A stretch of DNA of 64,000 nt from an uncultured Candidatus Saccharibacteria bacterium (GTDB lineage Bacteria; Patescibacteriota; Minisyncoccia; Phycocordibacterales; UBA9973): positions 2,106 through 66,105 of the forward strand of contig CAYOLW010000001.1 in assembly GCA_964404925.1 (NCBI GenBank), written 5' to 3'. The position numbers and the translations under genes are program-made. Below, piece by piece: positions 6,343 through 57,576 of this stretch (positions within the stretch are counted from its first letter, which is position 1; every line of letters starts with the position of its first letter). A model generated the notes under the pieces. The model was not told the origin of the DNA, did not search any database, and saw only the letters and a list, made by a program, of their open reading frames with translations.

Positions 6343-6759
6343 TTGGGTTATAATTTGAACATGGAAAGGTTTTTACTTTTTATAGTTTTTGTTTCTTTGT
6401 GTTTTTTTGTCTTAAACCATCCAGTTTATGCTCTTGGCACAACTAAAGATTTCGCTGGGCAAATAATTGCAACCAAGGCAATACAAATCGATGCATTAGA
6501 AAAAGGAAATTATACTTGTGTTGTACCAGGCAAAACCATTCAAATTAAAAGTGTTGGAGTAACAGGATACCAACCAGGAGCTTATTTCATACCTTTTAAT
6601 TCACTTGCACGCTGGCGAAGTAACCTAAAAAGGGGAAAACAGATTTTGGGTCAATATAGTGGAAAATTCTCAATTGTGTGCACCTCAAAAACAGTTCCAC
6701 CAACAGTCCAAACCGTAATGCTGCCAATAGTAGGCATGCATGGAACCCCATCAAAATAA
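6343..6759 (+). CDS. Small secreted hypothetical protein (138 aa).
   Basis: A hydrophobic signal-peptide-like N-terminus (LLFIVFVSLCFFVLNHPVYALG) is present. This is the first gene of the co-directional cluster. Confidence 0.45.
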   Translation: MGYNLNMERFLLFIVFVSLCFFVLNHPVYALGTTKDFAGQIIATKAIQIDALEKGNYTCVVPGKTIQIKSVGVTGYQPGAYFIPFNSLARWRSNLKRGKQILGQYSGKFSIVCTSKTVPPTVQTVMLPIVGMHGTPSK

Positions 6760-6766
6760 TTATAAA

Positions 6767-10691: not shown

Positions 10692-10696
10692 CTTAA

Positions 10697-14239: not shown

Positions 14240-14313
14240 TAGATTTGAGTGAATTGTTAGTCTTATAAAATAGTTTTTGTGTAGCTAATTTGATAGAATA
14301 TTATTAGTTACGA

Positions 14314-17049
14314 ATGAATTTTTCAAAGAAAAAAATTGGTAGAAAAATAGTGTTGTGGACACTGGTCTTGTACTTTGTATTTTTTCCTATTGCTAACACC
14401 TACGCTCAAAACTCAGGAACAACTGGTACCGTCAACAACAACACATATGCAACCAGTGGCGAAACATTGCTTCTTAATAAAGATTTAAGCACTGTAACCA
14501 ATACAACAGCATCGCTTAGTTTTACCGCTAGTACTACTCGCGAAGACCAATACGAACCTCTTTTAGTCAGAATTTATAAAGATAGCAATTTAAACGATGG
14601 AGATAATTCCGGGGTTTGGGATTATTCTACTAATACTGTACCAGCCGGCGTAGAAGAAGCAGTTTTGTGGCAAACAGCTGTTTTAGCCAGTAATACACCG
14701 GGACAAATAAAAGAAGTTACTTTTAGTTCCCTGGAACCAAACACTAATTACTTTGTTGTTGCTTATTTGTATAATGTTAATAAAATTGGTCTGCCATTTT
14801 TCTCTGGAGATTGGGATACTTTAATTACGGTAAATCTAACACTGACAACAGCCAAGGCTGTGGATACACTAGGTACTGTTAATAGTGTGGGTGGATCTAA
14901 TTATCACAATGACCCAGGTCCGGATTTAGGATGTTCTCCTTTATTTTTTGCTACACTAAAAAATTGTTTAGGTGCATTGTTTTACTACGTACTCTATGAA
15001 CCAGCAGCAGCCTTGGCACGACTTGCAGCGCACTTCTTGGACTTCTTTGTTTACTATGCAACTAATAGTGATTCATATAGATCAGAATTCGTACTAAAAG
15101 CTTGGGGGGTTGTAAGAGACGTTTCTAATATGTTTTTCATTGTGGCGCTTATGGTTTTAGCAATACGGATGATACTCGATATAGACAAGGCTCACGTTAA
15201 AAAAACATTGTCTGTCATAATACTAGTAGCACTAGTTATTAACTTTAGTTTATTTATTACTCGAGTGGTTATTGATGCTTCAAACATTCTAGCTAAAGTT
15301 TTCTACAACAACATTTCTTCTGTGGATGCATATGGTAACCCAACAGTTGGTGAAAGTGGAGAAAAATCTATAACCATAGGACTAACTAAGGTCATAGACC
15401 CAGTTAAAATAGTCAATAAACCACAAGACAACCTGAAGAACTTTATTTTTGTGGTATTTCTTTGTTTCTTCCTTATGCTTGGAATGGCATGGATATTCTT
15501 TACCAGCGCTTTGTTTTTCGTAGGGCGGGTAATATCACTATGGTTCTCAATGATTTTTGCGCCACTGGCCTTTATATCATACGCAGTGCCATTTAAAATA
15601 CCTGAATATGGACACACCGAATGGTGGAGTGGTTTATTCAAGGCTGCCTTTATGGCGCCATTGTTTGTATTTTTCTTGTATATAACAGCTTTGTTTGGTG
15701 GTACACTCGGCGCAATACCAGGAGACATTGCAAATGCAGACGATTGGTTTATGTCAGTAGTAGGGGAACTTGTACCATTCATACTTATATTCGGATTATT
15801 AAAAGCAGCTCAAAAAATAGCTAAAGAATATTCAGGTAAATTTGGCGATATGGTAAGTAAAACTGGTGCTGTATTGGGTACATTGGCCCTCGGCGGTGCA
15901 GGACTCGCAACCGCTGCTTTAGGTAGAAAATTCATAGGTTCACAAATTGCTAAAGGTTCACAAAGTCAGAAAGCAATGGATTGGGCGGGGCATAGAATGA
16001 AGTTTGATGAACAACTTAATCAATGGAAGGCCTCAAGCAAAAAAACTCGTGGAGCTAAACCAACCTGGGACCAATATTCTAAGAGTAATGGTGTTGATAG
16101 AAATAATATGGGCTTACGCGAAAGACTGGGAGCTCGTGCTAATTATTCTAAACTAAAAGTTAAGAGTGTTGAGCATGCTCGCCACGAACTTGAAGAAACA
16201 AAGAAGAAGCTTGGTTATGAAGGGGTTAATAACAATCAACTAGGTGGACAAGCTCAAAAAGATATTAAAGATCAATTCTTAAAAGACCATAAGTCAGAGT
16301 TTGAGAACTCAGTTAGGAACGGTAACGAGGTTCTGGTTGTTAATGTAAACGGAATAGACACTATTGTAAAAGGCCAAAATGAATACGAGGCAACCATGCG
16401 AAAAGTACTAAGTAAAGAAGTTTTGGGTGATGGCGATAAGACAAAAGAAGCTGAAGCAATTAAAGACGGTGATGCCATGTATAAACGTGTTGATAAAATA
16501 GACCCTGCAACAGGCCAAGTAATGAAAGACTCTCGTGGAAGGAAACTCACCGAAGATAAACTAGTATTAACTGATCAGGGTAGGAAGAAGGTAGAAAATA
16601 GACTGCATACAAGCTACAACAAAGAGGTTGGTGAGAAGGTCAAGAAAATGTCTGAAGTTAAGTATGAACATCTAGAAACAGAAGCAAAAATGAAATTAGG
16701 GGTTAAAGACAGACTGTCTGCTAGATCTGATGTTGGTACATATGACACCAGGAATCTGTCTCAGATAATTACCAAAATGTCTGCCAAAGATAAAATGTGG
16801 ATGGGAGGTATCCTTGGGTTAATGGTTGGAGGCATACGTGGCGGATTTAAGTCATTAAAACTAGACATGGGCAAAGGCCAAGGCGATTGGAAAAAGGACC
16901 TCGGTAGTACTATTACAGAAGCCTTGAAGAAGGCACCATCTGATTTTAAAGTTAATGTCAATCTAAGTGGTGGAGGAGGTGGAGGGGGAGGACATGGTGG
17001 CGGCGGCGATCATGGCGGTGGACACGGGGGAGGACATGGAGGACACTAA
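14314..17049 (+). CDS. Polytopic membrane protein (911 aa) with a secreted N-domain, a multi-TM core, a long charged cytoplasmic tail and a Gly/His-rich C-terminus. The topology is VirB6/TrbL/TcpH/PrgH-like.
   Basis: A signal/anchor sequence is followed by at least six hydrophobic helices between about aa 200 and 520. The protein sits two genes upstream of VirB4. The C-terminus is GGGGGGGHGGGGDHGGGHGGGHGGH. Confidence 0.45.
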   Translation: MNFSKKKIGRKIVLWTLVLYFVFFPIANTYAQNSGTTGTVNNNTYATSGETLLLNKDLSTVTNTTASLSFTASTTREDQYEPLLVRIYKDSNLNDGDNSGVWDYSTNTVPAGVEEAVLWQTAVLASNTPGQIKEVTFSSLEPNTNYFVVAYLYNVNKIGLPFFSGDWDTLITVNLTLTTAKAVDTLGTVNSVGGSNYHNDPGPDLGCSPLFFATLKNCLGALFYYVLYEPAAALARLAAHFLDFFVYYATNSDSYRSEFVLKAWGVVRDVSNMFFIVALMVLAIRMILDIDKAHVKKTLSVIILVALVINFSLFITRVVIDASNILAKVFYNNISSVDAYGNPTVGESGEKSITIGLTKVIDPVKIVNKPQDNLKNFIFVVFLCFFLMLGMAWIFFTSALFFVGRVISLWFSMIFAPLAFISYAVPFKIPEYGHTEWWSGLFKAAFMAPLFVFFLYITALFGGTLGAIPGDIANADDWFMSVVGELVPFILIFGLLKAAQKIAKEYSGKFGDMVSKTGAVLGTLALGGAGLATAALGRKFIGSQIAKGSQSQKAMDWAGHRMKFDEQLNQWKASSKKTRGAKPTWDQYSKSNGVDRNNMGLRERLGARANYSKLKVKSVEHARHELEETKKKLGYEGVNNNQLGGQAQKDIKDQFLKDHKSEFENSVRNGNEVLVVNVNGIDTIVKGQNEYEATMRKVLSKEVLGDGDKTKEAEAIKDGDAMYKRVDKIDPATGQVMKDSRGRKLTEDKLVLTDQGRKKVENRLHTSYNKEVGEKVKKMSEVKYEHLETEAKMKLGVKDRLSARSDVGTYDTRNLSQIITKMSAKDKMWMGGILGLMVGGIRGGFKSLKLDMGKGQGDWKKDLGSTITEALKKAPSDFKVNVNLSGGGGGGGGHGGGGDHGGGHGGGHGGH

Positions 17050-17055
17050 AAATAT

Positions 17056-18036
17056 ATGGATAAAGAAGATTTACAAAAAGTAATAGCAGAATATCACACA
17101 AGGTTGTCACCAAGGCTACAACAAGTTTTCTCTTCGCTTGGCTGGCTAGAAACATTGAAATCAATTGGGGACAGGTACAAACTCGACGATTCTCAAATGA
17201 ACGACCTCTCAATAGAGACAACCATGCTTATGCTTGGGGCTACGCACTGGAGTGACTATGCCAAACATTTGTTTGATGTAATGAAACTACCTCAATCTAA
17301 ACTAGACGAAGTGTTGGGTGAAATAAAAACTTTCGTCTATGGACCAGTAGAAGAAGAATTATCTGACGCTTACTATATTAATGCAATAATTCTAGAAGAG
17401 GTTGAAAAAAACATGGTTGAAGAAGAAAGCAAGTTAGTGCAGGCTGGTCTTGATGAAAGATTCAAGAAACTTGAACCAAGGATTCAGAAAATTGTACAAG
17501 ATTCTAATTATCAAGTTAAAATTTATTCAATTGGTAAAAGGAATAATTTAACCTTTGCCCAAATAACTGAACTAGAAGAAGTTATTACTGAAACAATATT
17601 AGGGAATATTCCCATAGACAAGTTCGAGGGGGAACTAAAAAACCGAGCGAACCTACCCACAGAAAGAATGGATTTTATTGTTAACGAAGTAAACGATAAA
17701 ATCCTTAGAGATATTAGAAGCTCAATCTTAAGTCTGGGTAGGCAGTCTGAAAACAAAGAAAATAGTCTAACTCTAAAACCAAACCATTCTATTTCTAATA
17801 GATTAAACATTAGTATTGAAGCAGAAAAGAAATTAGCCCCAATCGAACCAGAAAAAAAAGAAGAAGTATCCTCCACAAACTCAATCATAGCAGCTAAAAT
17901 GCAAGATTCTTTTAGTATGCCTAAAGTTACAACTGAATATACAATTGGTAAAATAAGCAAAGAATCTGACAAACCAACAACTAATACTGAAGTAAAAAAA
18001 TGGAGTGATCCATACCGCACAGATCCCAACGAATAG
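17056..18036 (+). CDS. Hypothetical soluble protein (326 aa) in the T4SS-like cluster.
   Basis: The ORF is tightly packed against its neighbours and no family is recognised. Confidence 0.4.
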   Translation: MDKEDLQKVIAEYHTRLSPRLQQVFSSLGWLETLKSIGDRYKLDDSQMNDLSIETTMLMLGATHWSDYAKHLFDVMKLPQSKLDEVLGEIKTFVYGPVEEELSDAYYINAIILEEVEKNMVEEESKLVQAGLDERFKKLEPRIQKIVQDSNYQVKIYSIGKRNNLTFAQITELEEVITETILGNIPIDKFEGELKNRANLPTERMDFIVNEVNDKILRDIRSSILSLGRQSENKENSLTLKPNHSISNRLNISIEAEKKLAPIEPEKKEEVSSTNSIIAAKMQDSFSMPKVTTEYTIGKISKESDKPTTNTEVKKWSDPYRTDPNE

Positions 18037-18090
18037 TATCGTTTTAATTCAAATACTTGTATAATAGATAAAGTCCAAAGGACTTTATCT

Positions 18091-18519
18091 ATGCAATTTA
18101 AAGTTCCACAATTTTTAGATATTGAAGACAAGATATTCGGCCCATTTACTTTTAGCGAATTCGTTTATTTAGCAGGAGGGGCAGGTCTGTGTTATGTGCT
18201 TTTTAAATTGCTTGGTTTTTTTGTAGGTTTTGTACCGATACTTTTGGTTGGTGGATTTTCTTTGGCTTTAGTTTTCTATAGACCAAACGGTAAACCTTTT
18301 ATAAATATGGTTGAGAATAGTATTAGTTACTATACTCAAAACAGATTATATGTATGGAAAAGACAAGACAGAAGTGATAATAAAAACAAACAACCAATAA
18401 ACAATGCAGTGTTAACAGAAAATGAACACATAGTTAAATTAAACAAAAGTAAACTTAAGGATTTATCATGGAGTTTAGATGTACTTGATGTTAAAAACAA
18501 AAGTGAAGAAAATATTTAA
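18091..18519 (+). CDS. Small two-TM membrane protein. Its size and its position immediately upstream of VirB4 are VirB3/PrgI-like.
   Basis: Two hydrophobic helices are YLAGGAGLCYVLFKLLGFFVGF and VPILLVGGFSLALVFY. The assignment rests on position alone, without sequence-family support. Confidence 0.3.
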   Translation: MQFKVPQFLDIEDKIFGPFTFSEFVYLAGGAGLCYVLFKLLGFFVGFVPILLVGGFSLALVFYRPNGKPFINMVENSISYYTQNRLYVWKRQDRSDNKNKQPINNAVLTENEHIVKLNKSKLKDLSWSLDVLDVKNKSEENI

Positions 18520-18524
18520 TTAAA

Positions 18525-19175
18525 ATGGCACTAAACGCACGCGCAACTCAAGATTTTGTACCTATCAAAGAAGTAAGAGATGGGGTAATAATGCTAAAAG
18601 ATGGCAGTTTGCGTGCCGTTGTTTTGGCTAATTCTATAAACTTATCTTTAAAATCAGAAGACGAACAAAAAGCTACTATTATGCAATTTCAGTCTTTCTT
18701 GAATACATTAGACTTCCCGGTACAAATTTCTATTCAATCAAGACGTTTAGATATTAGACCTTATTTATTACTCTTGGAGAATCGAGTGAAGGTACAAACA
18801 GAACCCTTGCTTAAAATGCAAACACAGGAATATATGGAGTTTATTCGAAGTTTTACAGATACGGTTAGTATTATGACAAAAAGTTTCTTTGTGGTTGTGC
18901 CGTATACAGAATCGGTGGTAACCGAAAACAGCAATCCTCTATCTAAGCTACTTGCTTTTGGTAATAAAAAAAATGTAGCTTTAGAAGTAGAAATGGATTT
19001 CGAAGAAAAAAGGTCACAACTAGAACAACGTGTTGGTGTTATACAACAAGGTTTGTCTCGATGTGGAATAAAAACAGCACAGCTCGGCACCGAAGAGGTA
19101 ATTGAGGTATTATATAAAGTATTTAATCCAGGCGAATTAGAAGGTAAAATAAAATTAGAAAACACAGAACAGTAA
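18525..19175 (+). CDS. VirB4/TrbE-like N-terminal region (216 aa), encoded as a separate ORF from the ATPase part.
   Basis: The stop TAA at 19173-19175 is followed one nt later by the ATG of the ATPase ORF, in a different frame. Together the two ORFs give 827 aa, a typical VirB4 size. The N-terminal-domain pattern FVPIKEVRDGVIMLKDGSLRAVVL is like Gram-positive VirB4 N-termini. Confidence 0.5.
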   Translation: MALNARATQDFVPIKEVRDGVIMLKDGSLRAVVLANSINLSLKSEDEQKATIMQFQSFLNTLDFPVQISIQSRRLDIRPYLLLLENRVKVQTEPLLKMQTQEYMEFIRSFTDTVSIMTKSFFVVVPYTESVVTENSNPLSKLLAFGNKKNVALEVEMDFEEKRSQLEQRVGVIQQGLSRCGIKTAQLGTEEVIEVLYKVFNPGELEGKIKLENTEQ

Positions 19176-19176
19176 T

Positions 19177-21012
19177 ATGGGATTATTTGATTCAATTTTA
19201 GGTGGTGACAAAACGGACAACAATAAAAAGCCGACAATATTGCCGATACTACCTGAGGAAATACACGAATCAGCGGCACTAGAACTCCAAGACGTAATTG
19301 CGCCTTCAGCTTTAAAAATAAATCCTAAATCTATCAATCTGGGGGATAAAATAGCTCGAACCTTCTTTATTATTTCTTATCCTAGATATTTGGCCGATAA
19401 CTGGTTTTCTCCAATTATTAACTTGGATCAAATTTTTGATGTATCAGTATATGTAAATCCAGTAGACACTTCTTTGGCAATGCGTCAGTTCCAAAAGAAA
19501 GTGGCTGAGGTAGAAAGCCAGATCAATACTCGTGAATCCAAAGGTATTGTACGTGACCCAATGCTAGACACAGCTTACCAGGATTTAGAAGAACTACGAG
19601 ATAAACTTATTCAAGCTCAAGAAAAGATGTTCGATGTAGGTATTTACATAACTATCTATGCTAATAATGAAATGGAGCTTTTTAAGGTTGAGAACGAAGT
19701 AAAATCCATTTTAGAATCAAAATTAATATACATTAAACCAGCCCTTTTCCAGCAAGAAGAAGGTTTTATGAGCGTGGTGCCTGTAGATACCGATAGGCTT
19801 AATATTACCCAGAGATTAAATTCTGAACCACTTTCTTCTGTGTTTCCTTTTATTTCTTTTGACTTAACTTCAGATAAAGGAATATTGTATGGTGTCAATA
19901 GACACAATTCTTCTTTGGTTATTTTTGATCGATTTTCTCTTGAGAACTATAACTCTGTTACTTTTGCTAAATCAGGTAGTGGTAAAAGTTATGCTACAAA
20001 ACTAGAAATTTTACGTAGTCTAATGTTTGATATTGATGTCATTGTCATAGACCCTGAAAGGGAATATGAATTCTTGTCTGAGGCTGTAGGAGGAAGGTAC
20101 TTCAACATCTCTCTTTCCTCAGATCACCACATAAACCCATTTGATTTACCTGTTCCCAGAGAGGACGAAACACCAGAAGACGTATTACGCTCAAATATAA
20201 TTAACTTGGTTGGTTTATTTAGATTGATGCTAGGTGGACTAACACCCGAAGAAGATGCTTTAGTTGACCGGGCGATATCTGAAACATACGCTATTAAAGA
20301 CATTACACCAGACTCTGATTTCACTAATATTGAACCTCCACTTTTGTCTGACTTTGAAATGGTTCTTTCTGGAATGGAAGGTTCTGAGTCTGTTGTGCAG
20401 AGATTGGTAAAATATACCAAAGGTTCTTGGTCCACGTTCATTAACCGACCGTCCAACGTAGATATCAACAAAAAGTTTGTTGTTTTCTCTGTTCGTGATA
20501 TGGAAGATGAATTAAAGCCAATCGCCATGTATATAGTTACTCACTATATATGGAATACAATCCGTAAAAACCTAAAGAAAAGACTTTTAGTAGTGGACGA
20601 GGCTTGGTGGATGATGAAATCTGAAGACACAGCATCTTTCTTGTATTCACTAGCTAAAAGAGGCCGCAAATACTATCTAGGTCTGGCTACAATAACTCAA
20701 GACGCTGCGGACTTTATGAAATCTCCGTACGGTGTACCTATTGTTACCAACTCATCAATCCAAATACTCCTCAAACAATCCCCAAGTACCATTGAAGTGC
20801 TCCAAAAGATATTTAATCTAACCGATGAAGAAAAATATCTTTTACTTGAATCTGGGGTAGGGGAAGGTATATTCTTTGCCGGTTTGAAGCATGTTGCTAT
20901 TAAGGTTGTAGCTTCTTACACAGAAGATCAAATCATTACTTCAGACCCATCACAAATATTGGCTATCAAAAAATCAAAAGACGATTTTGAAGAAGTGTCA
21001 CAAGGAAAGTAA
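19177..21012 (+). CDS. virB4: Type IV secretion/conjugation ATPase VirB4/TrbE/CagE-like (AAA_10/DUF87 type), C-terminal ATPase part.
   Basis: Walker A is AKSGSGKSY and Walker B is LLVVDEAW. The arrangement of RGRKYYLGLATITQD and the C-terminal TEDQI region is typical of VirB4-family ATPases. Confidence 0.85.
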   Translation: MGLFDSILGGDKTDNNKKPTILPILPEEIHESAALELQDVIAPSALKINPKSINLGDKIARTFFIISYPRYLADNWFSPIINLDQIFDVSVYVNPVDTSLAMRQFQKKVAEVESQINTRESKGIVRDPMLDTAYQDLEELRDKLIQAQEKMFDVGIYITIYANNEMELFKVENEVKSILESKLIYIKPALFQQEEGFMSVVPVDTDRLNITQRLNSEPLSSVFPFISFDLTSDKGILYGVNRHNSSLVIFDRFSLENYNSVTFAKSGSGKSYATKLEILRSLMFDIDVIVIDPEREYEFLSEAVGGRYFNISLSSDHHINPFDLPVPREDETPEDVLRSNIINLVGLFRLMLGGLTPEEDALVDRAISETYAIKDITPDSDFTNIEPPLLSDFEMVLSGMEGSESVVQRLVKYTKGSWSTFINRPSNVDINKKFVVFSVRDMEDELKPIAMYIVTHYIWNTIRKNLKKRLLVVDEAWWMMKSEDTASFLYSLAKRGRKYYLGLATITQDAADFMKSPYGVPIVTNSSIQILLKQSPSTIEVLQKIFNLTDEEKYLLLESGVGEGIFFAGLKHVAIKVVASYTEDQIITSDPSQILAIKKSKDDFEEVSQGK

Positions 21013-21023
21013 AGTGTTATAAT

Positions 21024-22037
21024 ATGCAAAGCATGTTTAATAAAAATATGTTAAGAAAAACATCTCTATTAATCTTGGTTTTGTCTTTTATTGTTTCCTT
21101 TACAGGAGTGAACAATGTTTTTGCACAACAAATTCAAGATAACGATATATTGATGAGCGTATATCCCAAATATCCAAAACCAGGGGATAATGTTCGTGTC
21201 TCAATTAACAGTTATACTGTTAATCTTGATAAGTCGTTTATTGTTTGGTCTTTAAATGGGGAAGAAAGGTCTAGGGGAATCGGTAAAAAGACATTTTCTT
21301 TTGACTTAGAAAAAACAAATAGTCAAAATCAGGTTACAGCTTCTATTGATTTGGTGGGTGGTATTACTGTTGTTAAAAGTAATACTATTGTTGCTTCGGA
21401 TATAGACATGCTTTGGGAAGCGGTAGATTCATACGTACCACCATTTTATAGAGGCAAGGCCCTTGGTGTACAAGACGGTAGTTTCAAGATTGTTGCTATA
21501 CCGAGTATTTTGTCCTCTGGTGGAAAAGTAAGCCCTAACAACCTTTCATATGTTTGGAAAAAAGACGGTGATGGCCAAGTAGGCGCTTCTGGTTTTGGTA
21601 AAAATTACCTTATCTTTACTAAAAGCTACCTTGATTCAGAAAACGAAATAGAGGTTGAAGCATCAGATATTGAAGGCAAAGTAAAAACAGGTAATAAAAT
21701 TATGGTGACAGGTTTAAAGAAACCAAAGGTTGTCTTATATAAAAAAGACTCTAAAATAGGCTTTAGATTAAACCAAGCACTGAGTGATAATTATAGTATT
21801 TCCGAACCAACAACAATAATTGCAGTTCCGTACTTCTTTTCTTTTAGCAATATCAATTCAGAGGATATGGCTTTTACCTGGTCAGCGGGCGGTAAACAAA
21901 TACAACCAAACAGAAATAAAAATGAAATAACAGTTATTCCACCCAAAGAAAGGGGTGGTACTGATATTTCATTAGCAGTAGAAAAAGCTAATTCTTTCTA
22001 CCAGAGTGTTAAAAAAAGGATCAATGTTGATTTTTAA
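21024..22037 (+). CDS. Secreted hypothetical protein (337 aa), predicted beta-rich.
   Basis: The signal peptide is LLILVLSFIVSFTGVNNVFAQQ. Confidence 0.45.
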   Translation: MQSMFNKNMLRKTSLLILVLSFIVSFTGVNNVFAQQIQDNDILMSVYPKYPKPGDNVRVSINSYTVNLDKSFIVWSLNGEERSRGIGKKTFSFDLEKTNSQNQVTASIDLVGGITVVKSNTIVASDIDMLWEAVDSYVPPFYRGKALGVQDGSFKIVAIPSILSSGGKVSPNNLSYVWKKDGDGQVGASGFGKNYLIFTKSYLDSENEIEVEASDIEGKVKTGNKIMVTGLKKPKVVLYKKDSKIGFRLNQALSDNYSISEPTTIIAVPYFFSFSNINSEDMAFTWSAGGKQIQPNRNKNEITVIPPKERGGTDISLAVEKANSFYQSVKKRINVDF

Positions 22038-23100
22038 TGAAAAAATAAAAAAGGTTACTGCTTTTATTTTTATACTGTTCTTTTGTGTTGGTTTTATAAT
22101 AAAAACACCTGTAATTATAGCCCAGGACCCTTGCACAACAGATTCAGATGGTGATGGACTTGTGGATGGAATGGATCCAATAAATGATACAACCAGCCAA
22201 ACTAATCCAAATATAATAAATTGTAATGAATTACAAAACACTCAAAATGATAGCGATGTAACATACACACTACTCGAACCTATTGGTGATTTGAGTAAAT
22301 TTAATGCAACTCAACCTTGTCCTTTGGTTGATTATATTAATAAATTTATAAAAATATTCCTTGGTATTTGTGCTGCACTTGCTATGGTGATGATTGTTGT
22401 TGGGGGACTCCAATACATGACCAGTGAATTATTGTCTTCAAAAGAAGCGGGAGTTAAGCAAATTCAAGGCGCGGCTTTTGGTTTTATTATGGCACTGGCC
22501 GCTTATGCTATTTTAAACACCGTTAATGCTGATTTACTTAACTTCTGTCCACACATACCAGATGCAAAAGTAACAGTTGTTGAAGATATAAGTGACGAGG
22601 CAACCACCTTAACAGGTGGAGGTAAAGCAACATACCACCCATACAAAGCTTATTCTCCTAATAATGCTTGCCCAGGACAACCAGGTAAAGAAACAAGCAC
22701 TTGTGTAAAAATGAACACAACTAATTTACCTAAAAAATATGATCAGAGTTTAGAAAAAGACACTCTAGATAAAATGGTAATATTTGATAACATCATGCGT
22801 TCTAAAGGAATTGTATGGTATGTGACTGAAGGGTGGCCAGCATCTAGCTCACATAAATCTAGTTGTCATGGTAATGGAACATGCTTAGACTTAAATACAC
22901 CAAACGCAACACCAGAAACAGTTAAATTAATGATTGGCGGTTTAATAGCTGTTGGTATGTGCCCAAACTATGAAATTTTACAGTCTGGAGGTATTACCAG
23001 GGAACAACTTAATGCTATTGGTATTCCCGATGCACGTATTTGGGTTACCAAAGGTACAGGGGCTCATATACATGTTGTTAATGCTAGGTGTGGTAGTTAA
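22006..23100 (+). CDS. Membrane-anchored cell-wall peptidase. An N-terminal anchor and Asp-rich Ca-binding-like motif are followed by a pilin-like double hydrophobic helix and a C-terminal LAS/M15 (VanY-like) metallopeptidase domain.
   Basis: The M15/LAS signature S-x-H-x-x-G-x-[AC]-x-D appears as SCHGNGTCLD, and HxH appears as GAHIHV near the C-terminus. The TSP3-like motif is TDSDGDGLVDGMDP. The paired hydrophobic helices are FLGICAALAMVMIVVGG and AFGFIMALAAYAIL. The start may instead be the in-frame ATG at 22024. Confidence 0.5.
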   Translation: MLKKGSMLIFNEKIKKVTAFIFILFFCVGFIIKTPVIIAQDPCTTDSDGDGLVDGMDPINDTTSQTNPNIINCNELQNTQNDSDVTYTLLEPIGDLSKFNATQPCPLVDYINKFIKIFLGICAALAMVMIVVGGLQYMTSELLSSKEAGVKQIQGAAFGFIMALAAYAILNTVNADLLNFCPHIPDAKVTVVEDISDEATTLTGGGKATYHPYKAYSPNNACPGQPGKETSTCVKMNTTNLPKKYDQSLEKDTLDKMVIFDNIMRSKGIVWYVTEGWPASSSHKSSCHGNGTCLDLNTPNATPETVKLMIGGLIAVGMCPNYEILQSGGITREQLNAIGIPDARIWVTKGTGAHIHVVNARCGS

Positions 23101-23125
23101 TCTGCTATAATATATTTAAATAAAT

Positions 23126-24442
23126 ATGTCCAAAAAAAATATAATTCTTTTAGCTGTTTTAATACTAATCATTGGACTGGTTGTGCTAGTTGCGTCTTTG
23201 CCTAAAAAAAGCAACGAGCCGGGTAGCGAAGGTGGAACAAACTTTTTCTCTGATTTATTTAATTTAGTTGGATTAAAGAACAAAAACTCTGATGATGGCA
23301 CACCAACCAAAAACATAGGTGGCACACCAGGCGGGGAAGAGGCAAGAGGTTCTTTATTTAAAATGTCTTCAATGCCTGTGGCAGGTTTTGGTGTATTAAA
23401 AAGAGAAGTTTACACTTATGTAGCACCACCAGAAGTAACAGATTTAGCTTCCAGCACTGAAAATGATACCAGAACCAATACTTTAAGTGTTCCAGAAACA
23501 GAATACAAACTAGATGTTAGATATGTTACAGCTGAAAATGGCAGTATCTATCAATATGACATTGAAAACGGACAAGAAAAGAAGTATTCAAGCTCTGTAC
23601 TACCGTATATGTACGAAGCCTTTTTTGGTAAAAATGCCTCATCAATTGCACTCAGATATATATCAGTGAACAAGCCAACAATCGAGACTTTTGTTCGTCA
23701 GTTACCAGAAGACCTACTGGGTTCAGATGCTGAACCTGAGGATAAAATATCTGGTAATTTCTTACCTCAAAACATAAATGATATTTCTATTTCTCCGGAT
23801 GGTATGAATATGTTTTATCTTTTAAAGATTTCATCCGGGATATCCGGCACTGTAGCGTCTTTGTCTGGTGCAAATAAAAACCAGGTGTTTGATTCAAGTT
23901 ATACAGAGTGGCTGTCTCAGTGGCCAAACAAGGATTTAATCACTGTTACGACCAAACCTGCTGCTGGTATTCCAGGTTTTATGTATGGAATCAATCCAAA
24001 CATAAAAGACTTTAAAAAAATATTAGGGGGTGTTAATGGTTTAACCACACTTACTAGCCCAAACGGTAAACTAGTCTTGTACTCTGCCGATGATTTAAAT
24101 CTATACTTATATGACACAGAAGAGAATAATTCAAAAAATTTAAATGTTCGTACATTACCTGAAAAATGTGTTTGGGGTGCATTAAGTGATCGTGTTTTTT
24201 GTGCTGTACCCCAGTATATTAATACTGATAAATACCCGGACTCTTGGTACCAAGGAGAAGTCTCTTTTATAGACTCATTAGAAGAAGTTTCTTTAACAGG
24301 TGGATTGCCTATCACTTTGACAAAAGAAGGGGAGGTTATTGACCCGATAGACGCAATTAAACTAACATTAAGTGAAGATGGCAACTTCTTGTTCTTTATG
24401 AATAAGAAAGATTTATATCTATGGGGTTTGCGTTTAAAATAA
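23126..24442 (+). CDS. N-terminally anchored extracytoplasmic protein (438 aa) with TolB/PD40-like beta-propeller repeat signatures.
   Basis: The transmembrane segment is IILLAVLILIIGLVVLVASL. Repeat-like segments are SPDGMNMFYLL and SPNGKLVLYSADDLNLYLYD. Confidence 0.35.
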   Translation: MSKKNIILLAVLILIIGLVVLVASLPKKSNEPGSEGGTNFFSDLFNLVGLKNKNSDDGTPTKNIGGTPGGEEARGSLFKMSSMPVAGFGVLKREVYTYVAPPEVTDLASSTENDTRTNTLSVPETEYKLDVRYVTAENGSIYQYDIENGQEKKYSSSVLPYMYEAFFGKNASSIALRYISVNKPTIETFVRQLPEDLLGSDAEPEDKISGNFLPQNINDISISPDGMNMFYLLKISSGISGTVASLSGANKNQVFDSSYTEWLSQWPNKDLITVTTKPAAGIPGFMYGINPNIKDFKKILGGVNGLTTLTSPNGKLVLYSADDLNLYLYDTEENNSKNLNVRTLPEKCVWGALSDRVFCAVPQYINTDKYPDSWYQGEVSFIDSLEEVSLTGGLPITLTKEGEVIDPIDAIKLTLSEDGNFLFFMNKKDLYLWGLRLK

Positions 24443-24443: not shown

Positions 24444-24923
24444 CTAGATTTGCCCTACATACCTAATAACCACACGCCTATCGCGGCCAACACCATTTGA
24501 TTCTGTTTTTAAATCATTAGCGAGTGACAATATCTCATGTACAATCCTCCTGTCGTAGGCAGACATTGGCTCAAGCTCTATGCTTGATTTAAAGTACCTT
24601 GCTCGCTCTGCCATCATATGGACTAAACTTTTCAAAGTCTCAATCTTTTTCTTTTGAAAACCATTTATATCAACTACAATGTTTTCGTTTGGGGTTTTAC
24701 TTGTTGGATTTTTTGATTCAACGATCCTGCGAACAATATGATTAAGTGCTTGCAGCGCTTCTCCTTCGCGGCTTAGAAATGGGTGAGCATTATTAAGCTC
24801 AACAGAGAAACAGTGACCACCTAATTCATCGTCTAAAACACACTCAGTAACAACAACATTATCTGAAACGTTAGTTTTATCAATTAGTTCTTTGATTATT
24901 GTTTTTATTTCTTCTTTGTTCAT
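24444..24923 (-). CDS. jag: Jag/KhpB-like RNA-binding protein with an R3H domain.
   Basis: The gene lies downstream of yidC in the conserved rpmH-rnpA-yidD-yidC-jag order. The R3H-type motif is YDRRIVHEIL. Confidence 0.65.
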   Translation of the reverse strand: MNKEEIKTIIKELIDKTNVSDNVVVTECVLDDELGGHCFSVELNNAHPFLSREGEALQALNHIVRRIVESKNPTSKTPNENIVVDINGFQKKKIETLKSLVHMMAERARYFKSSIELEPMSAYDRRIVHEILSLANDLKTESNGVGRDRRVVIRYVGQI

Positions 24924-24927
24924 ATAT

Positions 24928-25656
24928 TTATTTTGTGTTTAAAGTAAGAACCTCTTTTTTCTTGGCTAAATATATCTGTTGCAGGGTAGCAAAAACATTA
25001 CTTGTTATCCAATATAATGCAATTGCCCCAGAAATGCTATAGGCAATAAAGGTAACAACAACAGGGAAGACATATTTCATTTGAATTTGTAAGCTTTTTT
25101 GTAGACTTTCATTAAAAGAACCCTTGGTTGCAGTACTAACTGGTGGCTTAGGCATAAAATACGCTTGGAGGAACTGAGACAAACCAGCCAAAACAGCTAA
25201 AATAATACTTTTACTTGTTAGGTCCAACAAACCTAGGAAATTATTACTAGTAATTGTTGGTATTGGGGTAAAGGAGTACAAAGTGCTTGGATCTATATTT
25301 ATACCTTTATAGAAAGCATAGTATAAAGCAAAAATAATCGGTATCTGAATTAAAACCAGTAAACAACCTGAAAAAGGATTGGTTTTGTTTGTTTTATATA
25401 ATTCAAAAGTTAGTCGAGCTTGTTCTTCTTTGGTCTTACCAGAATTCTTTATTTTATCAATTTCAGGCTGTATCAGGTTCATTTTAACCTGACTTTTTAT
25501 AGATTTACTAGCCAAAGGGAAGAGGATTACCTTGACCAAAACGGTTAATAAAATAACAGCTAAGCCGATATCCCCACCAGGAACCAAGGCCACAAAAGCA
25601 GCCAACAGGTTAACCATTGGTTTATAAAGTAGCATTTCCCATAAACTATGTAACAT
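24928..25656 (-). CDS. yidC: Membrane protein insertase YidC/Oxa1 (short form).
   Basis: Five hydrophobic helices are present with a conserved YidC core (PLASKSIKSQVKMNLIQPEI, LIQIPIIFALY). The operon position is conserved. Confidence 0.85.
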   Translation of the reverse strand: MLHSLWEMLLYKPMVNLLAAFVALVPGGDIGLAVILLTVLVKVILFPLASKSIKSQVKMNLIQPEIDKIKNSGKTKEEQARLTFELYKTNKTNPFSGCLLVLIQIPIIFALYYAFYKGINIDPSTLYSFTPIPTITSNNFLGLLDLTSKSIILAVLAGLSQFLQAYFMPKPPVSTATKGSFNESLQKSLQIQMKYVFPVVVTFIAYSISGAIALYWITSNVFATLQQIYLAKKKEVLTLNTK

Positions 25657-25692
25657 CCAACCATTCTATACTAAAAGAACAGAATTTCAAAG

Positions 25693-25902
25693 TTATGGCA
25701 CAGGATCTATATGGTTCTTTTGCCAAGGATGGCAACGCAAAATCCTAAAAAAGCTTAAAACTACACCTTTAAGTGCACCATGTTTTTGTATTGCTTCTTT
25801 TGCGTAACTTGAACAGGTGGGGTAAAAGACACAAGAGGGTTTTTTGAGCGGACTTATGTTTTTCTGATATAAATCAATTAATTTTATTAAGTATTTTTTC
25901 AA
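25693..25902 (-). CDS. yidD: Membrane protein insertion efficiency factor YidD.
   Basis: YYQKNISP...[23 protein letters not shown] matches the YidD hallmark CxFxPTCSxY. Confidence 0.8.
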
Positions 25903-26200
25903 CGTCTTGTTTGATTAATTCAGTGTTTATTTCTTTATTTTTTAAAGTAAAAACACCATTAAAACCCAACGGGAGTTTATGCATAAAACTCTTTATAGCT
26001 AAATAACCCTTTCTTTTTAAGGCATTTCTCTTGTTGGCTAGTTTTTCCACCTTCTTAGAAACAACAAAAGACACCTTAGGTGGTGTTTTTAAGGTGCTTT
26101 TATAAAATTTAAGGCCTACATTTTTACCCCAAAAAGAAACACCTTTTTGAAAAACAGTGCCCACATCCTTTCTAGTTGTTCTATTTTTCTTAGGTAGCAT
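25874..26200 (-). CDS. rnpA: RNase P protein component RnpA.
   Basis: A basic 108-aa protein lies immediately downstream of rpmH and contains RnpA-like [10 protein letters not shown]. Its start overlaps the rpmH stop in a TAATG junction. Confidence 0.85.
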
Positions 26201-26346
26201 TAAGCCTTCTTTTGCACTGCCAGGCGAGCTCGTCCTTTTTGACGTCTTCGGGCCAGAACCTTTTTACCATTCTTAGTCTTGTTTCTAACTAAAAATCCGT
26301 GGGTTTTGGCTCGTTTTCGTTTTTTAGGATTATATGTTTGTGACAT
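26200..26346 (-). CDS. rpmH: 50S ribosomal protein L34. It is absent from the ORF track because it is under 60 aa.
   Basis: Manual minus-strand translation gives [48 protein letters not shown]. This is the classic L34 sequence. Confidence 0.85.
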
Positions 26347-26483
26347 TCGGGAAGTATACTGTAAAAGCAGGCTAAAGTCAAAACCCTTATTTATTAAAAT
26401 ATATATCTTATCAACAGGTTATTAACATATTTTATAACTTTTAATAATTTGTGTATTAGGTCTCGAATAGTATAATTTGTCCC
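26347..26483 (+). promoter_or_regulatory. rpmH/dnaA divergent control region. It holds DnaA-box-like sites and a dnaA promoter whose TATAAT is 7 nt from the ATG.
   Basis: TTATCAACA is an 8/9 DnaA box. TTGTGT, a 16-nt spacer and TATAAT at 26466-26471 lie just before the ATG at 26484, so dnaA is possibly leaderless. Confidence 0.4.
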
Positions 26484-27830
26484 ATGGATACTAAACAGCT
26501 TTGGAAAAATTGCTTGGGGGAGATTGAACTTGGTGTTTCAAAAGCTAATTTCAGTACTTGGTTTAAAAATACCAGTATTGTTAAGGAGGATGGTGGTGTT
26601 ATATACATCGGTGTACCTAATGAATTCGTAAGAGACTGGCTGAAGAATAAATATCATAAACTAATAACCAAAACCCTTACAGATACCTACGACACATTAC
26701 GCGCTGTTGAATACATAATAAGTAAAACAGACCACAATAAAGCAGAACCGGCTCCGGTTATCGCTGAAAGCACTATAAACAAAGAGTTACCCCTAAAAGA
26801 CCTTTATGTCAGCCCAGAAGACAACCTAAATCCACGCTATCGTTTTGATTCTTTTATTGTTGGTGGTTTTAATGAGTTAGCTTATGCGGCCGCACAAGCA
26901 ATCATCGAATCTCCTGGTACAAAATACAATCCATTTTTTGTATATGGTAATACAGGGCTTGGGAAGACCCACTTATTACAGTCTGTTGGTAATGGTATTA
27001 AAGAAAAATACCCAAACAAAAAGGTTTATTACCTAACTTTGGAGAAATTTGCTACAGATTTTATAAATTCACTCCAAGGGAACAAAGCCAACTCTTTCAA
27101 AGAAAAATATAGAAAATATGACCTATTAATCATAGATGATATTCAATTTATTGGTAAAATGGAGAAAATACAAGAAGAATTGTTTCATACTTTCAATACT
27201 TTTTATGAAAGTAATAAACAAATTATATTTTCTTCTGACAAACACCCAAACTATATACCTGAATTAGCTGACCGGCTCAAGTCTCGTTTCGCTGCTGGTA
27301 TGATTGTGGATGTTTCAGAGCCAGAATATGAGTCTAGATTAGCTATTCTAAAAATAAAAACAAAAGAACAGGGTATTGAGTTAGAACAAGACAGCCTAGA
27401 ATTCGTGGCTTCGTCTATTCGAGGGAATATAAGAGAGCTTGAAGGTTGTCTAAACTCAATCGCATGCCAAGCAAAACTAAAAGGGAAGCAATTGTCTTTA
27501 GTAGAGATCAAAAACATACTTAAGAACAATATAAAACCCAAGAAAACAGTAGCTGTAAAAGATGTGGTTAAGATAGTTAGCGACCATTACAACATCGAGG
27601 AAGCCGCTGTATACGACAAAACAAGACGTAAAGAAATTGTACGTGCTAGACAATTAATAATGTATATCTTGCGGGAAGATTTTAATGTTTCCTACCCTTT
27701 AATTGGACAGAAACTTGGTGGTAAAGATCACACAACCGTTATTCACTCTTATTTAAAAATTAAAGAGGACTTAAAAAATGATCCACAGTTATTACAAGAG
27801 TTGGAGCAGGTGCGTATTATGTTTAAATAG
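26484..27830 (+). CDS. dnaA: Chromosomal replication initiator DnaA.
   Basis: Walker A is GNTGLGKTHL and the box is IDDIQFIGKMEKIQEEFFHTFN. The C-terminal DNA-binding domain has the DnaA signature ...IGQKLGGKDHTTVIHS. Confidence 0.95.
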   Translation: MDTKQLWKNCLGEIELGVSKANFSTWFKNTSIVKEDGGVIYIGVPNEFVRDWLKNKYHKLITKTLTDTYDTLRAVEYIISKTDHNKAEPAPVIAESTINKELPLKDLYVSPEDNLNPRYRFDSFIVGGFNELAYAAAQAIIESPGTKYNPFFVYGNTGLGKTHLLQSVGNGIKEKYPNKKVYYLTLEKFATDFINSLQGNKANSFKEKYRKYDLLIIDDIQFIGKMEKIQEELFHTFNTFYESNKQIIFSSDKHPNYIPELADRLKSRFAAGMIVDVSEPEYESRLAILKIKTKEQGIELEQDSLEFVASSIRGNIRELEGCLNSIACQAKLKGKQLSLVEIKNILKNNIKPKKTVAVKDVVKIVSDHYNIEEAAVYDKTRRKEIVRARQLIMYILREDFNVSYPLIGQKLGGKDHTTVIHSYLKIKEDLKNDPQLLQELEQVRIMFK

Positions 27831-28058
27831 CTGTGTATAAAGTGTTTATTTTTAATTAATGTTGTGTTAATTATTTGTTGAAAGAAAATTGTTTTTAGAA
27901 AGTTTTACCAATAGGTGTGTATAAACCAAAATTAACATAACAAGTAATCAACACCACTAATTCAATTCAAATCTTTATAAATAACACATAAAAGATTTAT
28001 CCACTTATCAACACCCCTAATAATATTAATAGATTTAATATATAAAGATATAAACATT
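27831..28058 (+). promoter_or_regulatory. Putative oriC, an AT-rich dnaA-dnaN intergenic region with at least four DnaA-box-like 9-mers.
   Basis: TGTGTATAA (reverse complement TTATACACA) occurs at 27832-27840 and 27916-27924. TTATCCACT is at 27997-28005 and TTATCAACA at 28005-28013. The region also has AT-rich tracts. Confidence 0.55.
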
Positions 28059-29156
28059 ATGAAACTCGAATGTGGGATAGAAAAAATTAAGAACGCGATT
28101 TCATTAACAGAGCGAGTAACAAGTGGTAATCTAACCCTACCAGTTTTAAACTCAATACTTTTAATTGCAGAAGGGAAGAATCTGAAACTTAGATCAACCA
28201 ATCTGTCTATTGGTGTAGAGGTGGATATACCAGCCAAGATTGAAGTAGAGGGAACTATAGCTATCACTGGAACGTCTCTTTCTAATGCTTTTACAAATAT
28301 ACACGGAAATGAAAACATCACCCTAGAGGTAGAGAATGGGAATCTTTTAGTTAAAACTAAAAAAAGTAAAATACGTTTTAAAGCAAACCCTCATGAAGAT
28401 TTCCCAACCATACCAAAAGTAGAAGGGAATAGTTTTGAAATTGAAAACAAAAAATTAATAGAAGGTATAAAATCAGTTTACTATAGTGCTTCAGTTACAG
28501 ATATTAAACCAGAAATATCAAGTGTTTATATTTATAAAGAGGAAGAGAACCTTGTTTTTGTATCTACAGATTCTTTTCGTTTAGCGGAGAAGAGGGTTAA
28601 AATAAAGAAAAGTTTTGATTTGAGTGGTATTTTAATACCTTATAAAAATATCCCAGAAATAATTAGGATTCTAGGTGAAGTGAATGAGGTTATTCAAGTT
28701 AGTTTTAATAAAAACCAAATATCTTTCTACGTTTCTGGTATATATTTAACATCCAGGATTGTTGACGGGGGTTTCCCTGATTATAAACAAATAATACCAA
28801 AAACATTTAGCACAGAAATTGTTTTACTTAAACAAGATTTATTGAACGCTTTAAAATTATCAAATATATTTTCTGACAAGTTCAATCAATTAAACTTAAA
28901 AGTTGATGTAAAAAATAAAAATTTAGAACTTTTTTCTGAGAATACTAATGTTGGAGAAAATAAAACTCAAATAGACGCAGCTATAACAGGAGAGGATACT
29001 GAATTAAGTTTTAATTATAAATATTTTCTAGACTGTTTTCCTTCATTAACTACAGATAGTGTAGTTATTAAAATAAACAACTCCTCAAAACCAATGGTTA
29101 TTGAACCTGTATCAGACAAGTCTTTTACTTACCTGGTAATGCCAATGAATAAGTAA
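28059..29156 (+). CDS. dnaN: DNA polymerase III beta sliding clamp.
   Basis: The gene is 365 aa, sits immediately after dnaA, and begins with MKLECGIEKIKNAISLTERVTS, a typical DnaN N-terminus. Confidence 0.9.
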   Translation: MKLECGIEKIKNAISLTERVTSGNLTLPVLNSILLIAEGKNLKLRSTNLSIGVEVDIPAKIEVEGTIAITGTSLSNAFTNIHGNENITLEVENGNLLVKTKKSKIRFKANPHEDFPTIPKVEGNSFEIENKKLIEGIKSVYYSASVTDIKPEISSVYIYKEEENLVFVSTDSFRLAEKRVKIKKSFDLSGILIPYKNIPEIIRILGEVNEVIQVSFNKNQISFYVSGIYLTSRIVDGGFPDYKQIIPKTFSTEIVLLKQDLLNALKLSNIFSDKFNQLNLKVDVKNKNLELFSENTNVGENKTQIDAAITGEDTELSFNYKYFLDCFPSLTTDSVVIKINNSSKPMVIEPVSDKSFTYLVMPMNK

Positions 29157-34160: not shown

Positions 34161-34849
34161 TACTTTTCGTAGTTTAAACAAAAATCTTTACCACCTACTT
34201 TAAAACTTGAGTACGAATCATTAATTATGTTCATTGCTTCTTCTGGTGTTTTAACGTGAAAGATTAGATTATAGTCTTCTTTGTCTAAATATTTTTTTGC
34301 TAAAGGTTCTTCTTTTATCCAACGGAGTAATCCTTCCCATTCGTTGCCCATTAAAATAATTGGAATGTTACAAATATGATGCACTTGCACAAGTTGCCAT
34401 GTATAAAAAAGTTCTAGGATTGTACCTAACCCCCCAGGGCATACTACCACTGCATTTGTAAGGGTCATAAATTCGTCTAGTCTTCCTGAGAAACGATTAA
34501 ACTGTTCTTTGTATTCTACTGAATCATTAAACTTTTGTTCCCAAGGAAGCTTTATCCCTATTCCTATAGAGTGTGCACCTGTTTTACCTATTGCTTGTCC
34601 TTCTAAATGACCTTCGTTGCCTGCTTTCATTAAACCAGGACCACCACCAGTTATTACATCGATACCTGTTTCCCCGAGCATTTTAGCTAAGTGTTTAACT
34701 TGTTTGTAGATTTCATCATTGTTTTCTATTCTCGAACTACCAAAAATGGTCACTCGGAAATGTTGCTTGTCTTTTTTTAAAAAAAAGTTGAACACCTTGT
34801 TTTTCATATGTTCCACTATAAGATTATTCTTCGTATAGGTCAACAACAC
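34151..34849 (-). CDS. LOG-family protein (putative cytokinin riboside 5'-monophosphate phosphoribohydrolase/lysine decarboxylase-like, TIGR00730 type).
   Basis: The GGGPGLMKAGNEG and PGGLGTILELF motifs match the LOG-family GGGxGxM and PGGxGTxxE. Confidence 0.8.
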   Translation of the reverse strand: MLLTYTKNNLIVEHMKNKVFNFFLKKDKQHFRVTIFGSSRIENNDEIYKQVKHLAKMLGETGIDVITGGGPGLMKAGNEGHLEGQAIGKTGAHSIGIGIKLPWEQKFNDSVEYKEQFNRFSGRLDEFMTLTNAVVVCPGGLGTILELFYTWQLVQVHHICNIPIILMGNEWEGLLRWIKEEPLAKKYLDKEDYNLIFHVKTPEEAMNIINDSYSSFKVGGKDFCLNYEKYKI

Positions 34850-45545: not shown

Positions 45546-45562
45546 TTTGGTATACTAGTTAA

Positions 45563-46213: not shown

Positions 46214-46242
46214 CTTATAAAAAGACACCATATAATTGGCTT

Positions 46243-46270
46243 TGTCAATTAGGGTTGATTTTGCTATAAT
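46243..46270 (+). promoter_or_regulatory. Promoter for uvrA with TTGTCA, a 17-nt spacer and TATAAT.
   Basis: TTGTCA at 46243-46248 and TATAAT at 46265-46270, 9 nt before the ATG at 46280. Confidence 0.5.
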
Positions 46271-46279
46271 ACAACGTTC

Positions 46280-57573: not shown

Positions 57574-57576
57574 TTT

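Follow-up and report, generated by a model that had tools for sequence, protein, structure and literature searches.

The closest described counterparts of the element examined here are the pilins and the wall hydrolases of type IV secretion systems (T4SSs). T4SS loci with VirB2-like pilins have already been published for Patescibacteria (Quinonero-Coronel 2025, PMC12102498; Wang 2023, PMC10633639, the latter on T4SS essentiality). Known pilins are small (about 70–150 amino acids when mature) and carry no enzyme, and Saccharibacteria encode them in arrays of 2–11. As for the wall, the 2025 survey cites PrgK (pCF10), TcpG (pCW3), TraG (pIP501) and VirB1 as presumed local remodelers of the wall for the channel, and the survey infers that VirB1 is not required for pilus biogenesis. 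We analyzed a gene in a 64,000-nucleotide stretch of DNA from an uncultured patescibacterium (contig CAYOLW010000001.1, positions 2,106 to 66,105; hereafter, the window), in which the single pilin gene of a T4SS locus also encodes a predicted 20-kDa catalytic domain. As in VirB2, TrbC, TraA and the Patescibacteria pilins (PF18895; PMC10633639, PMC12102498), the protein has a signal peptide and a two-helix hairpin, and, as with the Patescibacteria pilins, its gene lies near virB4 in a replication origin (oriC)-proximal T4SS locus with no relaxase or coupling protein nearby. Here, a known apparatus and fold superfamily meet in a family and an architecture that are both new, and in the searchable literature we came across no account of fusions between pilins and hydrolases or of this C-terminal domain (C-domain) family. 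We favor, with a probability of roughly 55%, the reading that the protein is a T4SS pilin carrying an outward-facing zinc-dependent peptidoglycan peptidase that would act where the apparatus crosses the wall, while the architecture and the enzyme class, taken alone, are highly probable.

A preliminary description of this DNA, made from the letters alone, had placed an open reading frame on the forward strand at 22006–23100. This frame exists and comprises 364 codons when counted from GTG 22006. The probable start is ATG 22024, which gives 358 amino acids, as an AGGA Shine-Dalgarno sequence lies immediately 5' of it and as MLIFN is the N-terminus of the database copy P0001 and of several homologues. 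Residue numbers throughout follow the GTG numbering, i.e., ATG numbering plus 6. P0001, an identical 358-residue product present in NCBI-derived data, is encoded on a 286.6-kb contig. The gene overlaps its upstream neighbor by 14 nucleotides within a tightly packed, co-directional gene run from 7857 to 24442, and the antisense frames over it are short (47–89 amino acids) and unsupported. An assembly or frameshift artefact was rejected, as the same fusion occurs in 132 independent cluster representatives. The gene and its main parts are:

22024..23100, forward strand, pilin-peptidase fusion gene (358 amino acids, AGGA 5' of the ATG, P0001 an exact copy)
22024..22122, forward strand, Sec-type signal peptide, residues 7–39 (Lys-rich start, then a hydrophobic core at 17–38)
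22264..22287, forward strand, conserved YTLLEPIG motif that opens the pilin module (81 relatives share the consensus YxLLxPxP; alignment A5 has TYTLLAPLG)
22324..22521, forward strand, VirB2-type T4SS pilin hairpin, residues 107–172 (Pfam PF18895)
22528..22680, forward strand, end-of-pilin motif NADLLNFCPHIP and acidic linker, residues 175–225, the junction at which bare pilins stop and C-domains are exchanged
22681..23097, forward strand, predicted LAS (Hedgehog/DD-peptidase-like) zinc peptidase domain, residues 226–364 (from profile, model and conservation)

The signal peptide is probably cleaved between A39 and Q40, and 'AQ' is found at the equivalent position in homologues P0002, P0003, P0006–P0008, P0010, P0012 and P0013. 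The pilin module covers residues 87–186, running from the YTLLEPIG motif through two hydrophobic helices to the end motif, and is followed by an acidic linker of about 40 residues (187–225). Hydropathy segments were found at residues 13–41, 107–143 and 152–178, with TM1 at about 112–136, a predicted cytoplasmic loop at 137–151 and TM2 at about 152–175. A signal peptide followed by two transmembrane helices with a short polar loop is the arrangement of a T4SS pilin. As a cleaved signal peptide and two helices are involved, both ends of the protein would lie outside the membrane, with the C-domain facing the wall. The earlier proposal that the two hydrophobic helices form a VirB2/TrbC-type pilin hairpin is borne out by the match to PF18895 (T4SS_pilin), at 30.5 bits against a gathering cut-off of 26.6 (E = 3.9e-7, 66 of 71 model positions); NCBIfam adds a weak match to 'pilin-like conjugal transfer protein'. 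A local pilin hidden Markov model (HMM) gave 98 bits for the fusion gene, its sole match in the window; eight related loci likewise have the fusion gene as their only pilin-like frame.

It should be considered that a match of 30.5 bits is modest and that short hydrophobic hairpins can match by composition, in which case the hairpin would be a mere membrane anchor and the protein a housekeeping wall hydrolase unrelated to type IV secretion. We find this hardly credible, as the PF18895 score exceeds a curated cut-off and 69 of the 81 relatives match the same model, as bare pilins of 143–188 amino acids, with about 85% hairpin identity to the fused P0004, fill the identical slot after VirB4, and as the T4SS gene order is strictly conserved in nine related loci.

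For the C-domain, neither a Pfam match at E≤1 nor an NCBIfam match was obtained in this protein, and Pfam at E≤0.01 found nothing on the C-domains of the 81 relatives. A Peptidase_M15, M15_3/4 or VanY profile match, by which the preliminary description proposed to check its assignment, is thus missing in all of these proteins, and strict M15/VanY membership was rejected on this ground and because hhalign results were weak or spurious. An exhaustive HMMER search yielded 221 cluster representatives at E≤1e-3. The C-domain defines a sizeable new family that numbers at least 221 clusters (50% identity) and is not represented by any Pfam or NCBIfam model.

When the 44-sequence profile A3 was run against all PDB sequences, the top 22 matches were all Hedgehog N-domains (best E = 5e-4), aligned over about 80 residues at about 16% identity; the only other matches were two indole-3-glycerol phosphate synthase chains (E about 0.55), and no bacterial M15, VanX, VanY or other LAS/peptidase chain was among them. 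With hhalign, A3 gave E = 4.3e-5 against human ShhN (the sequence used agrees with the PDB alignment text), 0.29 against an M15_4 domain and a spurious result against a VanY protein. Single-sequence phmmer against PDB reached Hedgehog at E of about 1 only, and a shallow six-sequence profile found nothing. The closest known relatives are Hedgehog N-domains, not VanY.

Structure prediction gave a similar ranking. The AlphaFold2 model based on A3 reached a predicted local distance difference test (pLDDT) score of 93.6 and a predicted template modeling score of 0.88. A Foldseek search against PDB placed Hedgehog-N first (E 1.8e-4 to 3e-3, TM-score about 0.54), followed by E. coli MepA (E about 1e-3) and then by LdcB/VanY-type carboxypeptidases (E about 0.1), while against viral models it returned phage M15A/M15B peptidases and virion wall hydrolases (E from 1.5e-3). 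As this matched set of Hedgehog-N, MepA, LdcB/VanY and phage M15A/M15B defines the LAS fold, the C-domain is predicted to have the LAS (Hedgehog/DD-peptidase) fold, the features of which are listed in PMC6027127; this is also the three-dimensional fold of the model. An earlier AlphaFold2 model, made on a six-sequence alignment, was mediocre (pLDDT 76, below 50 in the active-site loop) and gave weak Foldseek matches; profile, model and Foldseek results were all better with 44 sequences than with six. The preliminary description had called the domain a LAS/M15 peptidase. The LAS fold is upheld by the PDB profile search, Foldseek and the invariant residues, but M15/VanY family membership is not.

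The residues on which a peptidase activity would depend are:

22828..22830, forward strand, E275 of the 'TEGW' motif (invariant; aligns with Shh E127)
22852..22890, forward strand, active-site strand H283-x3-C287-H288-x4-C293-x-D295 (from HMM and hhalign alignments to Shh)
22972..22974, forward strand, E323 of the 'NYE' motif (invariant; putative catalytic base, compare Shh E177 in 'VYYE')
23065..23073, forward strand, H354-I-H356 (H354 the putative third zinc ligand, H356 a subfamily feature)

The alignments pair TE(275)GW with Shh TE(127)GW, H283 with H135, H288 with H141 and D295 with D148, so that the H-x6-D zinc-ligand motif is present as H288-GNGTCL-D295. Beyond this, the equivalence of E323 and Shh E177 rests on motif order, as the alignments end one residue earlier, and that of H354 and Shh H183 is deduced from the family consensus HFSVY as compared to Shh HCSV. 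The family 'VYE' resembles Shh 'VYYE177' and 'HFSVY' resembles Shh 'H183-CSV', which supports our inference that zinc is held by H288, D295 and H354, with E323 and H283 taking part in catalysis.

Conservation was counted in 132 aligned family members. E275, H283, C287, C293, D295 and E323 are found in 132/132, H288 in 131/132 (99%) and H354 in 124/132 (94%), while position 356 is Ser in 84/132 (64%) and His in 48. SCHGNGTCLD and AHIHV, the two strings from which a zinc site had first been proposed, are present at residues 286–295 (22861–22890) and 353–357 (23062–23076), respectively, and the conservation counts, like the hairpin score, put these features beyond chance. Within the proposed S-x-H-x-x-G-x-[AC]-x-D motif, the His and the Asp are conserved but the Ser is variable, whereas Cys287 and Cys293, which flank the His and precede the Asp, are invariant; within HxH, the first His is conserved, whereas the second is mostly Ser.

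As a Hedgehog-like adhesin or ligand, the domain could also recognize peptidoglycan, or a surface molecule of the host, with no cleavage, given that the nearest solved relatives are Hedgehog signaling domains, whose peptidase activity is debated (PMC6027127), and that the spacing between the Glu and the last His is unusually long. Such a non-catalytic role is, however, quite improbable. The predicted metal-ligand and catalytic positions are 94–100% conserved across 132 divergent sequences, bona fide hydrolase families fill the same slot in orthologues, and pseudoenzymes such as Drosophila Hh lose their metal and catalytic residues (PMC6027127).

Compared with solved structures, the C-domain is most like Hedgehog-N (Shh 1VHH; Roelink 2018, PMC6027127), its best match in both profile and fold, sharing TEGW, the H135-aligned His, H-x6-D, the C-terminal His strand and, putatively, the 'VYE' Glu. 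It differs in having no HH_signal match, about 16% identity, two invariant Cys residues and an insertion of about 30 residues that separates the Glu from its last His. Of the Hedgehog two-calcium site (E90, E91, D96, E127, D130, D132), only the E127 equivalent (E275) is retained; the D130 and D132 ligands are replaced by P278 and S280, and by Pro and Ser/Thr in the family. The two Cys residues beside the zinc-ligand positions are family-specific. As the protein terminates 8 residues past the last strand, there is also no Hint (autoprocessing) domain, and the C-domain is instead fused to a pilin. With MepA (M74; 1U10/1TZP), LdcB/VanY (M15B; 4OX3, 4MPH, 5HNM) and the phage M15A/M15B lysins, the next-best fold matches, it shares the fold class, a predicted His/Asp/His zinc site and a predicted extracytoplasmic location, and M15_4 and VanY domains fill the same slot in orthologous pilin fusions. 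Unlike these LAS peptidases, it shows no HMM-level similarity to them and no ExxH spacing, and its S-x-H Ser is not conserved.

The genes around the fusion bear on its role in secretion:

18091–18519, forward strand, PrgI/VirB3-like gene (Pfam PrgI)
18525–19175, forward strand, TrsD-like gene, 216 amino acids (NCBIfam TrsD and VirB4 N-terminal matches)
19177–21012, forward strand, VirB4 ATPase, two genes upstream of the pilin (Pfam P-loop_TraG and AAA_10)
21024..22037, forward strand, 337-amino acid secreted or anchored partner, between VirB4 and the pilin in loci L002–L006, L009 and L010
23126..24442, forward strand, 438-amino acid N-terminally anchored partner, the last gene of the operon, directly downstream of the pilin in the same loci

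The upstream core block (18091..21012, forward strand), with its PrgI, TrsD and VirB4 assignments by Pfam and NCBIfam, agrees with the T4SS context proposed beforehand. The hydrolase had also been placed next to VirB4; it does belong to the same T4SS operon, but the 337-amino acid gene lies between the two. By its matches, the 18525–19175 gene encodes the VirB4 N-domain on its own, immediately ahead of the ATPase gene; its orthologues carry Pfam PF26593 (TraC-like). The 337- and 438-amino acid proteins each begin with a hydrophobic segment and have no Pfam, NCBIfam or PDB-sequence matches. Their genes flank the pilin in 9/10 related loci, L007 showing the downstream gene only, and they are candidates for lineage-specific T4SS subunits. 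Downstream of the 438-amino acid gene come convergent jag (R3H) and yidC and then dnaA and dnaN (24444–29156), such that the operon adjoins the replication-origin gene set, a layout that matches the published oriC-proximal Patescibacteria T4SS loci (PMC12102498). No relaxase or coupling protein was found among the frames scanned with Pfam, which cover 29 of 37 plausible genes of at least 150 amino acids (six genes lay outside the scan set; 53502–54185, 54725–55288 and 62762–63427 were unscanned, and 6740–7825 was run against Pfam only, with no match). Among named relatives, a metagenome-assembled genome of Candidatus Nomurabacteria is the nearest, and the best explanation of the operon is a chromosomal, Gram-positive-type, MPF-FATA-like T4SS of a Nomurabacteria/Paceibacteria-like patescibacterium.

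Related loci show how stable this arrangement is and where it varies. As far as each contig reaches, the order PrgI, TrsD, VirB4, a gene of about 330 amino acids, the pilin, a gene of about 440 amino acids, jag, yidC, dnaA and dnaN is found in L001–L006, L009 and L010, with rnpA, rpmH and yidD between yidC and dnaA in some loci only. The T4SS gene order is strictly kept in the nine loci that reach the T4SS genes (both flanks of the pilin are covered in L002–L006 and L008–L010, its downstream flank in L001; L007 is too short), with slight variation among ribosomal and replication genes outside the operon. What varies within the operon is the part fused to the pilin:

LAS domain in the pilin slot: the window protein, P0002, P0004, P0005 and P0009
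YkuD in the pilin slot: P0003
NlpC/P60 in the pilin slot: P0008 and P0010
Peptidase_M15_4 in the pilin slot: P0012
VanY in the pilin slot: P0013
weak SLT- or lysozyme-like domain in the pilin slot: P0006, P0007 and P0011
bare pilin in the slot: P0163 (143 amino acids) and P0201 (188 amino acids)

This list of C-domains is not a full census, as a homologue search with the pilin alone found nothing and its profile version found only proteins of up to 236 amino acids. The organism of P0003 is very close to that of the window (DnaA 94.6%, YidC 83.5% and pilin module 77% identity up to residue 198), and yet past residue 198 the two C-domains are unrelated. Across the hairpin, the bare P0163 and the fused P0004 share about 85% identity, and P0163 stops at ...NPQLLSVCLDKLK, exactly where the P0004 linker begins. 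The enzyme domain is thus an optional, exchangeable cargo of the pilin. Seen from the C-domain, the fusion is genuine and essentially obligate for the LAS family, as a pilin module precedes the domain in 132/151 proteins and as 18 of the remaining 19 are short (98–209 amino acids), most of them starting inside or just before the domain, and appear to be truncated gene calls; only P0117, at 408 amino acids, falls outside this pattern.

Some side observations concern the same junction. The unfused pilins P0201, P0182, P0168, P0171 and P0213 carry variable tails after ...INPDLL, which are Pro/Thr-rich or Cys-rich and 10–90 residues long, and because of this variability the pilin C-terminus looks generally permissive; it is probably exposed. 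P0014 (491 amino acids, from outside the window) is a pilin fusion with another LAS-like signature, SSCHYEGYANSGNCAD ... GPHLHV. Its C-domain was not picked up by the family HMM built here and may represent a second, separate zinc-peptidase cargo family.

That bare pilins terminate exactly at the junction also suits a polyprotein, in which cleavage near the end-of-pilin motif (NxDLLNFCPHIP) would release a normal pilin and a free secreted hydrolase, the fusion serving only to co-express or co-localize them. RP4 TrbC and Ti VirB2 prepilins are processed C-terminally, and the acidic linker that follows the junction seems flexible (low pLDDT at residues 1–8 of the first model). Nonetheless, the operon has no evident protease gene and the pilin end motif is the only candidate for a cleavage-site consensus, and we therefore take such processing to be unlikely; it would in any case be compatible with a wall-acting pilin fusion, rather than exclusive of it.

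Under the reading that we favor, removal of the signal peptide would leave the hairpin in the membrane with both ends outside and the short loop in the cytoplasm. The C-terminus would run via the linker of about 40 residues into the zinc peptidase of 140 residues, in which, by homology, H288, D295 and H354 would hold the zinc and E323 and H283 would perform the chemistry. The enzyme would so be tethered where the T4SS and the pilus assemble, and local cleavage of peptidoglycan stem peptides or cross-links would let the apparatus pass the cell wall, a function of the VirB1/PrgK/TcpG type borne by the pilin itself. Peptidoglycan is the likely substrate, judging from the known members of the fold and from every alternative cargo being a wall enzyme; a target in the organism's own wall exists, given the class A penicillin-binding protein encoded at 29419–31977.

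The same preliminary description had proposed the hydrolase as a wall-breaching component. Strong comparative support for this comes from the YkuD, NlpC/P60, M15_4, VanY and SLT-like domains of the orthologues, but the opening of the cell's own wall would go beyond these data, and the enzyme is optional. Several further points weigh against the reading that we favor and should be considered with it. None of the M15, M15_2, M15_3, M15_4, VanY, M74 or HH_signal models matches the C-domain, and the fold matches are only moderate (TM-score about 0.54). E323 and H354 lie about 30 residues apart, as compared to 2–5 between the catalytic Glu and the last zinc His in VanX and Shh. The bare-pilin relatives have no hydrolase anywhere in the locus, so that the enzyme is either dispensable for the basic apparatus or supplied elsewhere. 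Moreover, swapping so rapid that it separates relatives with 94.6% DnaA identity fits inter-organism conflict better than it fits housekeeping remodeling of the wall.

The bare pilins and the recent cassette swap lean toward an accessory, possibly host-directed role. The fusion might polymerize as an enzyme-decorated pilus, or sit at the contact site, and attack host peptidoglycan for access or nutrients. It is the only pilin of the locus, related bare pilins tolerate variable C-terminal tails, and the domain is optional and exchanged between very close relatives, as are effectors and endolysins. The termini of F-pilin lie exposed at the surface of the pilus, and catalytic filaments have a precedent in enzymatic flagellins. 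The T4SS and pilins of Patescibacteria are essential for the epibiotic growth of S. epibionticum (PMC10633639, PMC12857230). A domain of 20 kDa on each subunit may, however, clash sterically with VirB2-type packing, and we hold this host-directed role to be possible but doubtful. In its strongest form, the T4SS pilus of Nomurabacteria/Paceibacteria would be a catalytic filament that bores through the host wall, with the swapping of enzyme cassettes tracking host wall chemistry, which is a speculation and rather unlikely.

Like PrgK, TcpG, TraG and VirB1, as cited in PMC12102498, the fusion brings a modular wall-cutting domain, membrane-tethered or secreted, encoded in a T4SS operon. Those enzymes, however, stand alone and combine SLT, CHAP, LytM or NlpC/P60 domains with an ordinary transmembrane anchor, whereas here the anchor is a pilin, the enzyme is a predicted LAS peptidase and some close relatives have none. 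As Pfam finds no SLT, CHAP, NlpC/P60 or LytM domain in the fusion protein, the likeness would be one of function and not of membership, although orthologous slots do carry NlpC/P60 or SLT-like domains.

Epibiotic life in Patescibacteria depends on the T4SS, and the fusion offers, for one large class, the concrete alternative that the wall-cutting activity would come with the pilin, as a swappable module. With animal Hedgehog ligands as its closest solved relatives, the C-domain provides a data point on the bacterial ancestry of the Hedgehog/DD-peptidase fold. The prediction is directly testable at H288, D295, H354 and E323. If the enzyme were displayed on a polymerized pilus, this would be the first catalytic conjugative-type pilus.

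Between the signal peptide and the pilin module, residues 40–86 form a variable acidic and polar stretch with a single Asp-rich motif:

22141..22176, forward strand, thrombospondin-type-3-like Ca-binding motif DSDGDGLVDGMD, residues 46–57 (motif scan; fits DxDxDGxxDxxD)

The Asp-rich Ca-binding motif noted earlier is present, but it is not a family-wide feature. Among 161 collected proteins, it occurs in P0001 (the same protein) and in the closest relative P0003 only, and Pfam TSP_3 does not match the fusion protein. The motif was thus rejected as a family feature and is, by this comparison, real but lineage-specific. Two motifs of the same DxDxDGxxDxxD type occur in the frame at 10697–14239 (forward strand, 1180 amino acids), just upstream of the T4SS genes, together with fibronectin-III and purple-acid-phosphatase-N-like repeats. 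This frame probably encodes a large surface protein, and it coincides with a rise in guanine-cytosine content to 0.449 at 12–14 kb, as compared to about 0.36 elsewhere.

Other genes of the window were noted in passing. The class A penicillin-binding protein (29419–31977, reverse strand) combines transglycosylase, transpeptidase and Big_7 domains and follows dnaN in related loci as well; as it is encoded, the organism synthesizes its own peptidoglycan. A PilB/GspE-type ATPase that includes an MshEN domain, at 34824–36521 (reverse strand; Pfam T2SSE E = 8e-111), indicates that type IV pilus or type II secretion machinery is also nearby. Unremarkable housekeeping genes include uvrB, uvrA and uvrC, which are consecutive within 43428–50203 (forward strand), and at 55303–58590 (forward strand) a heavy-metal P-type ATPase is found beside an HMA-DsbD_2 protein.

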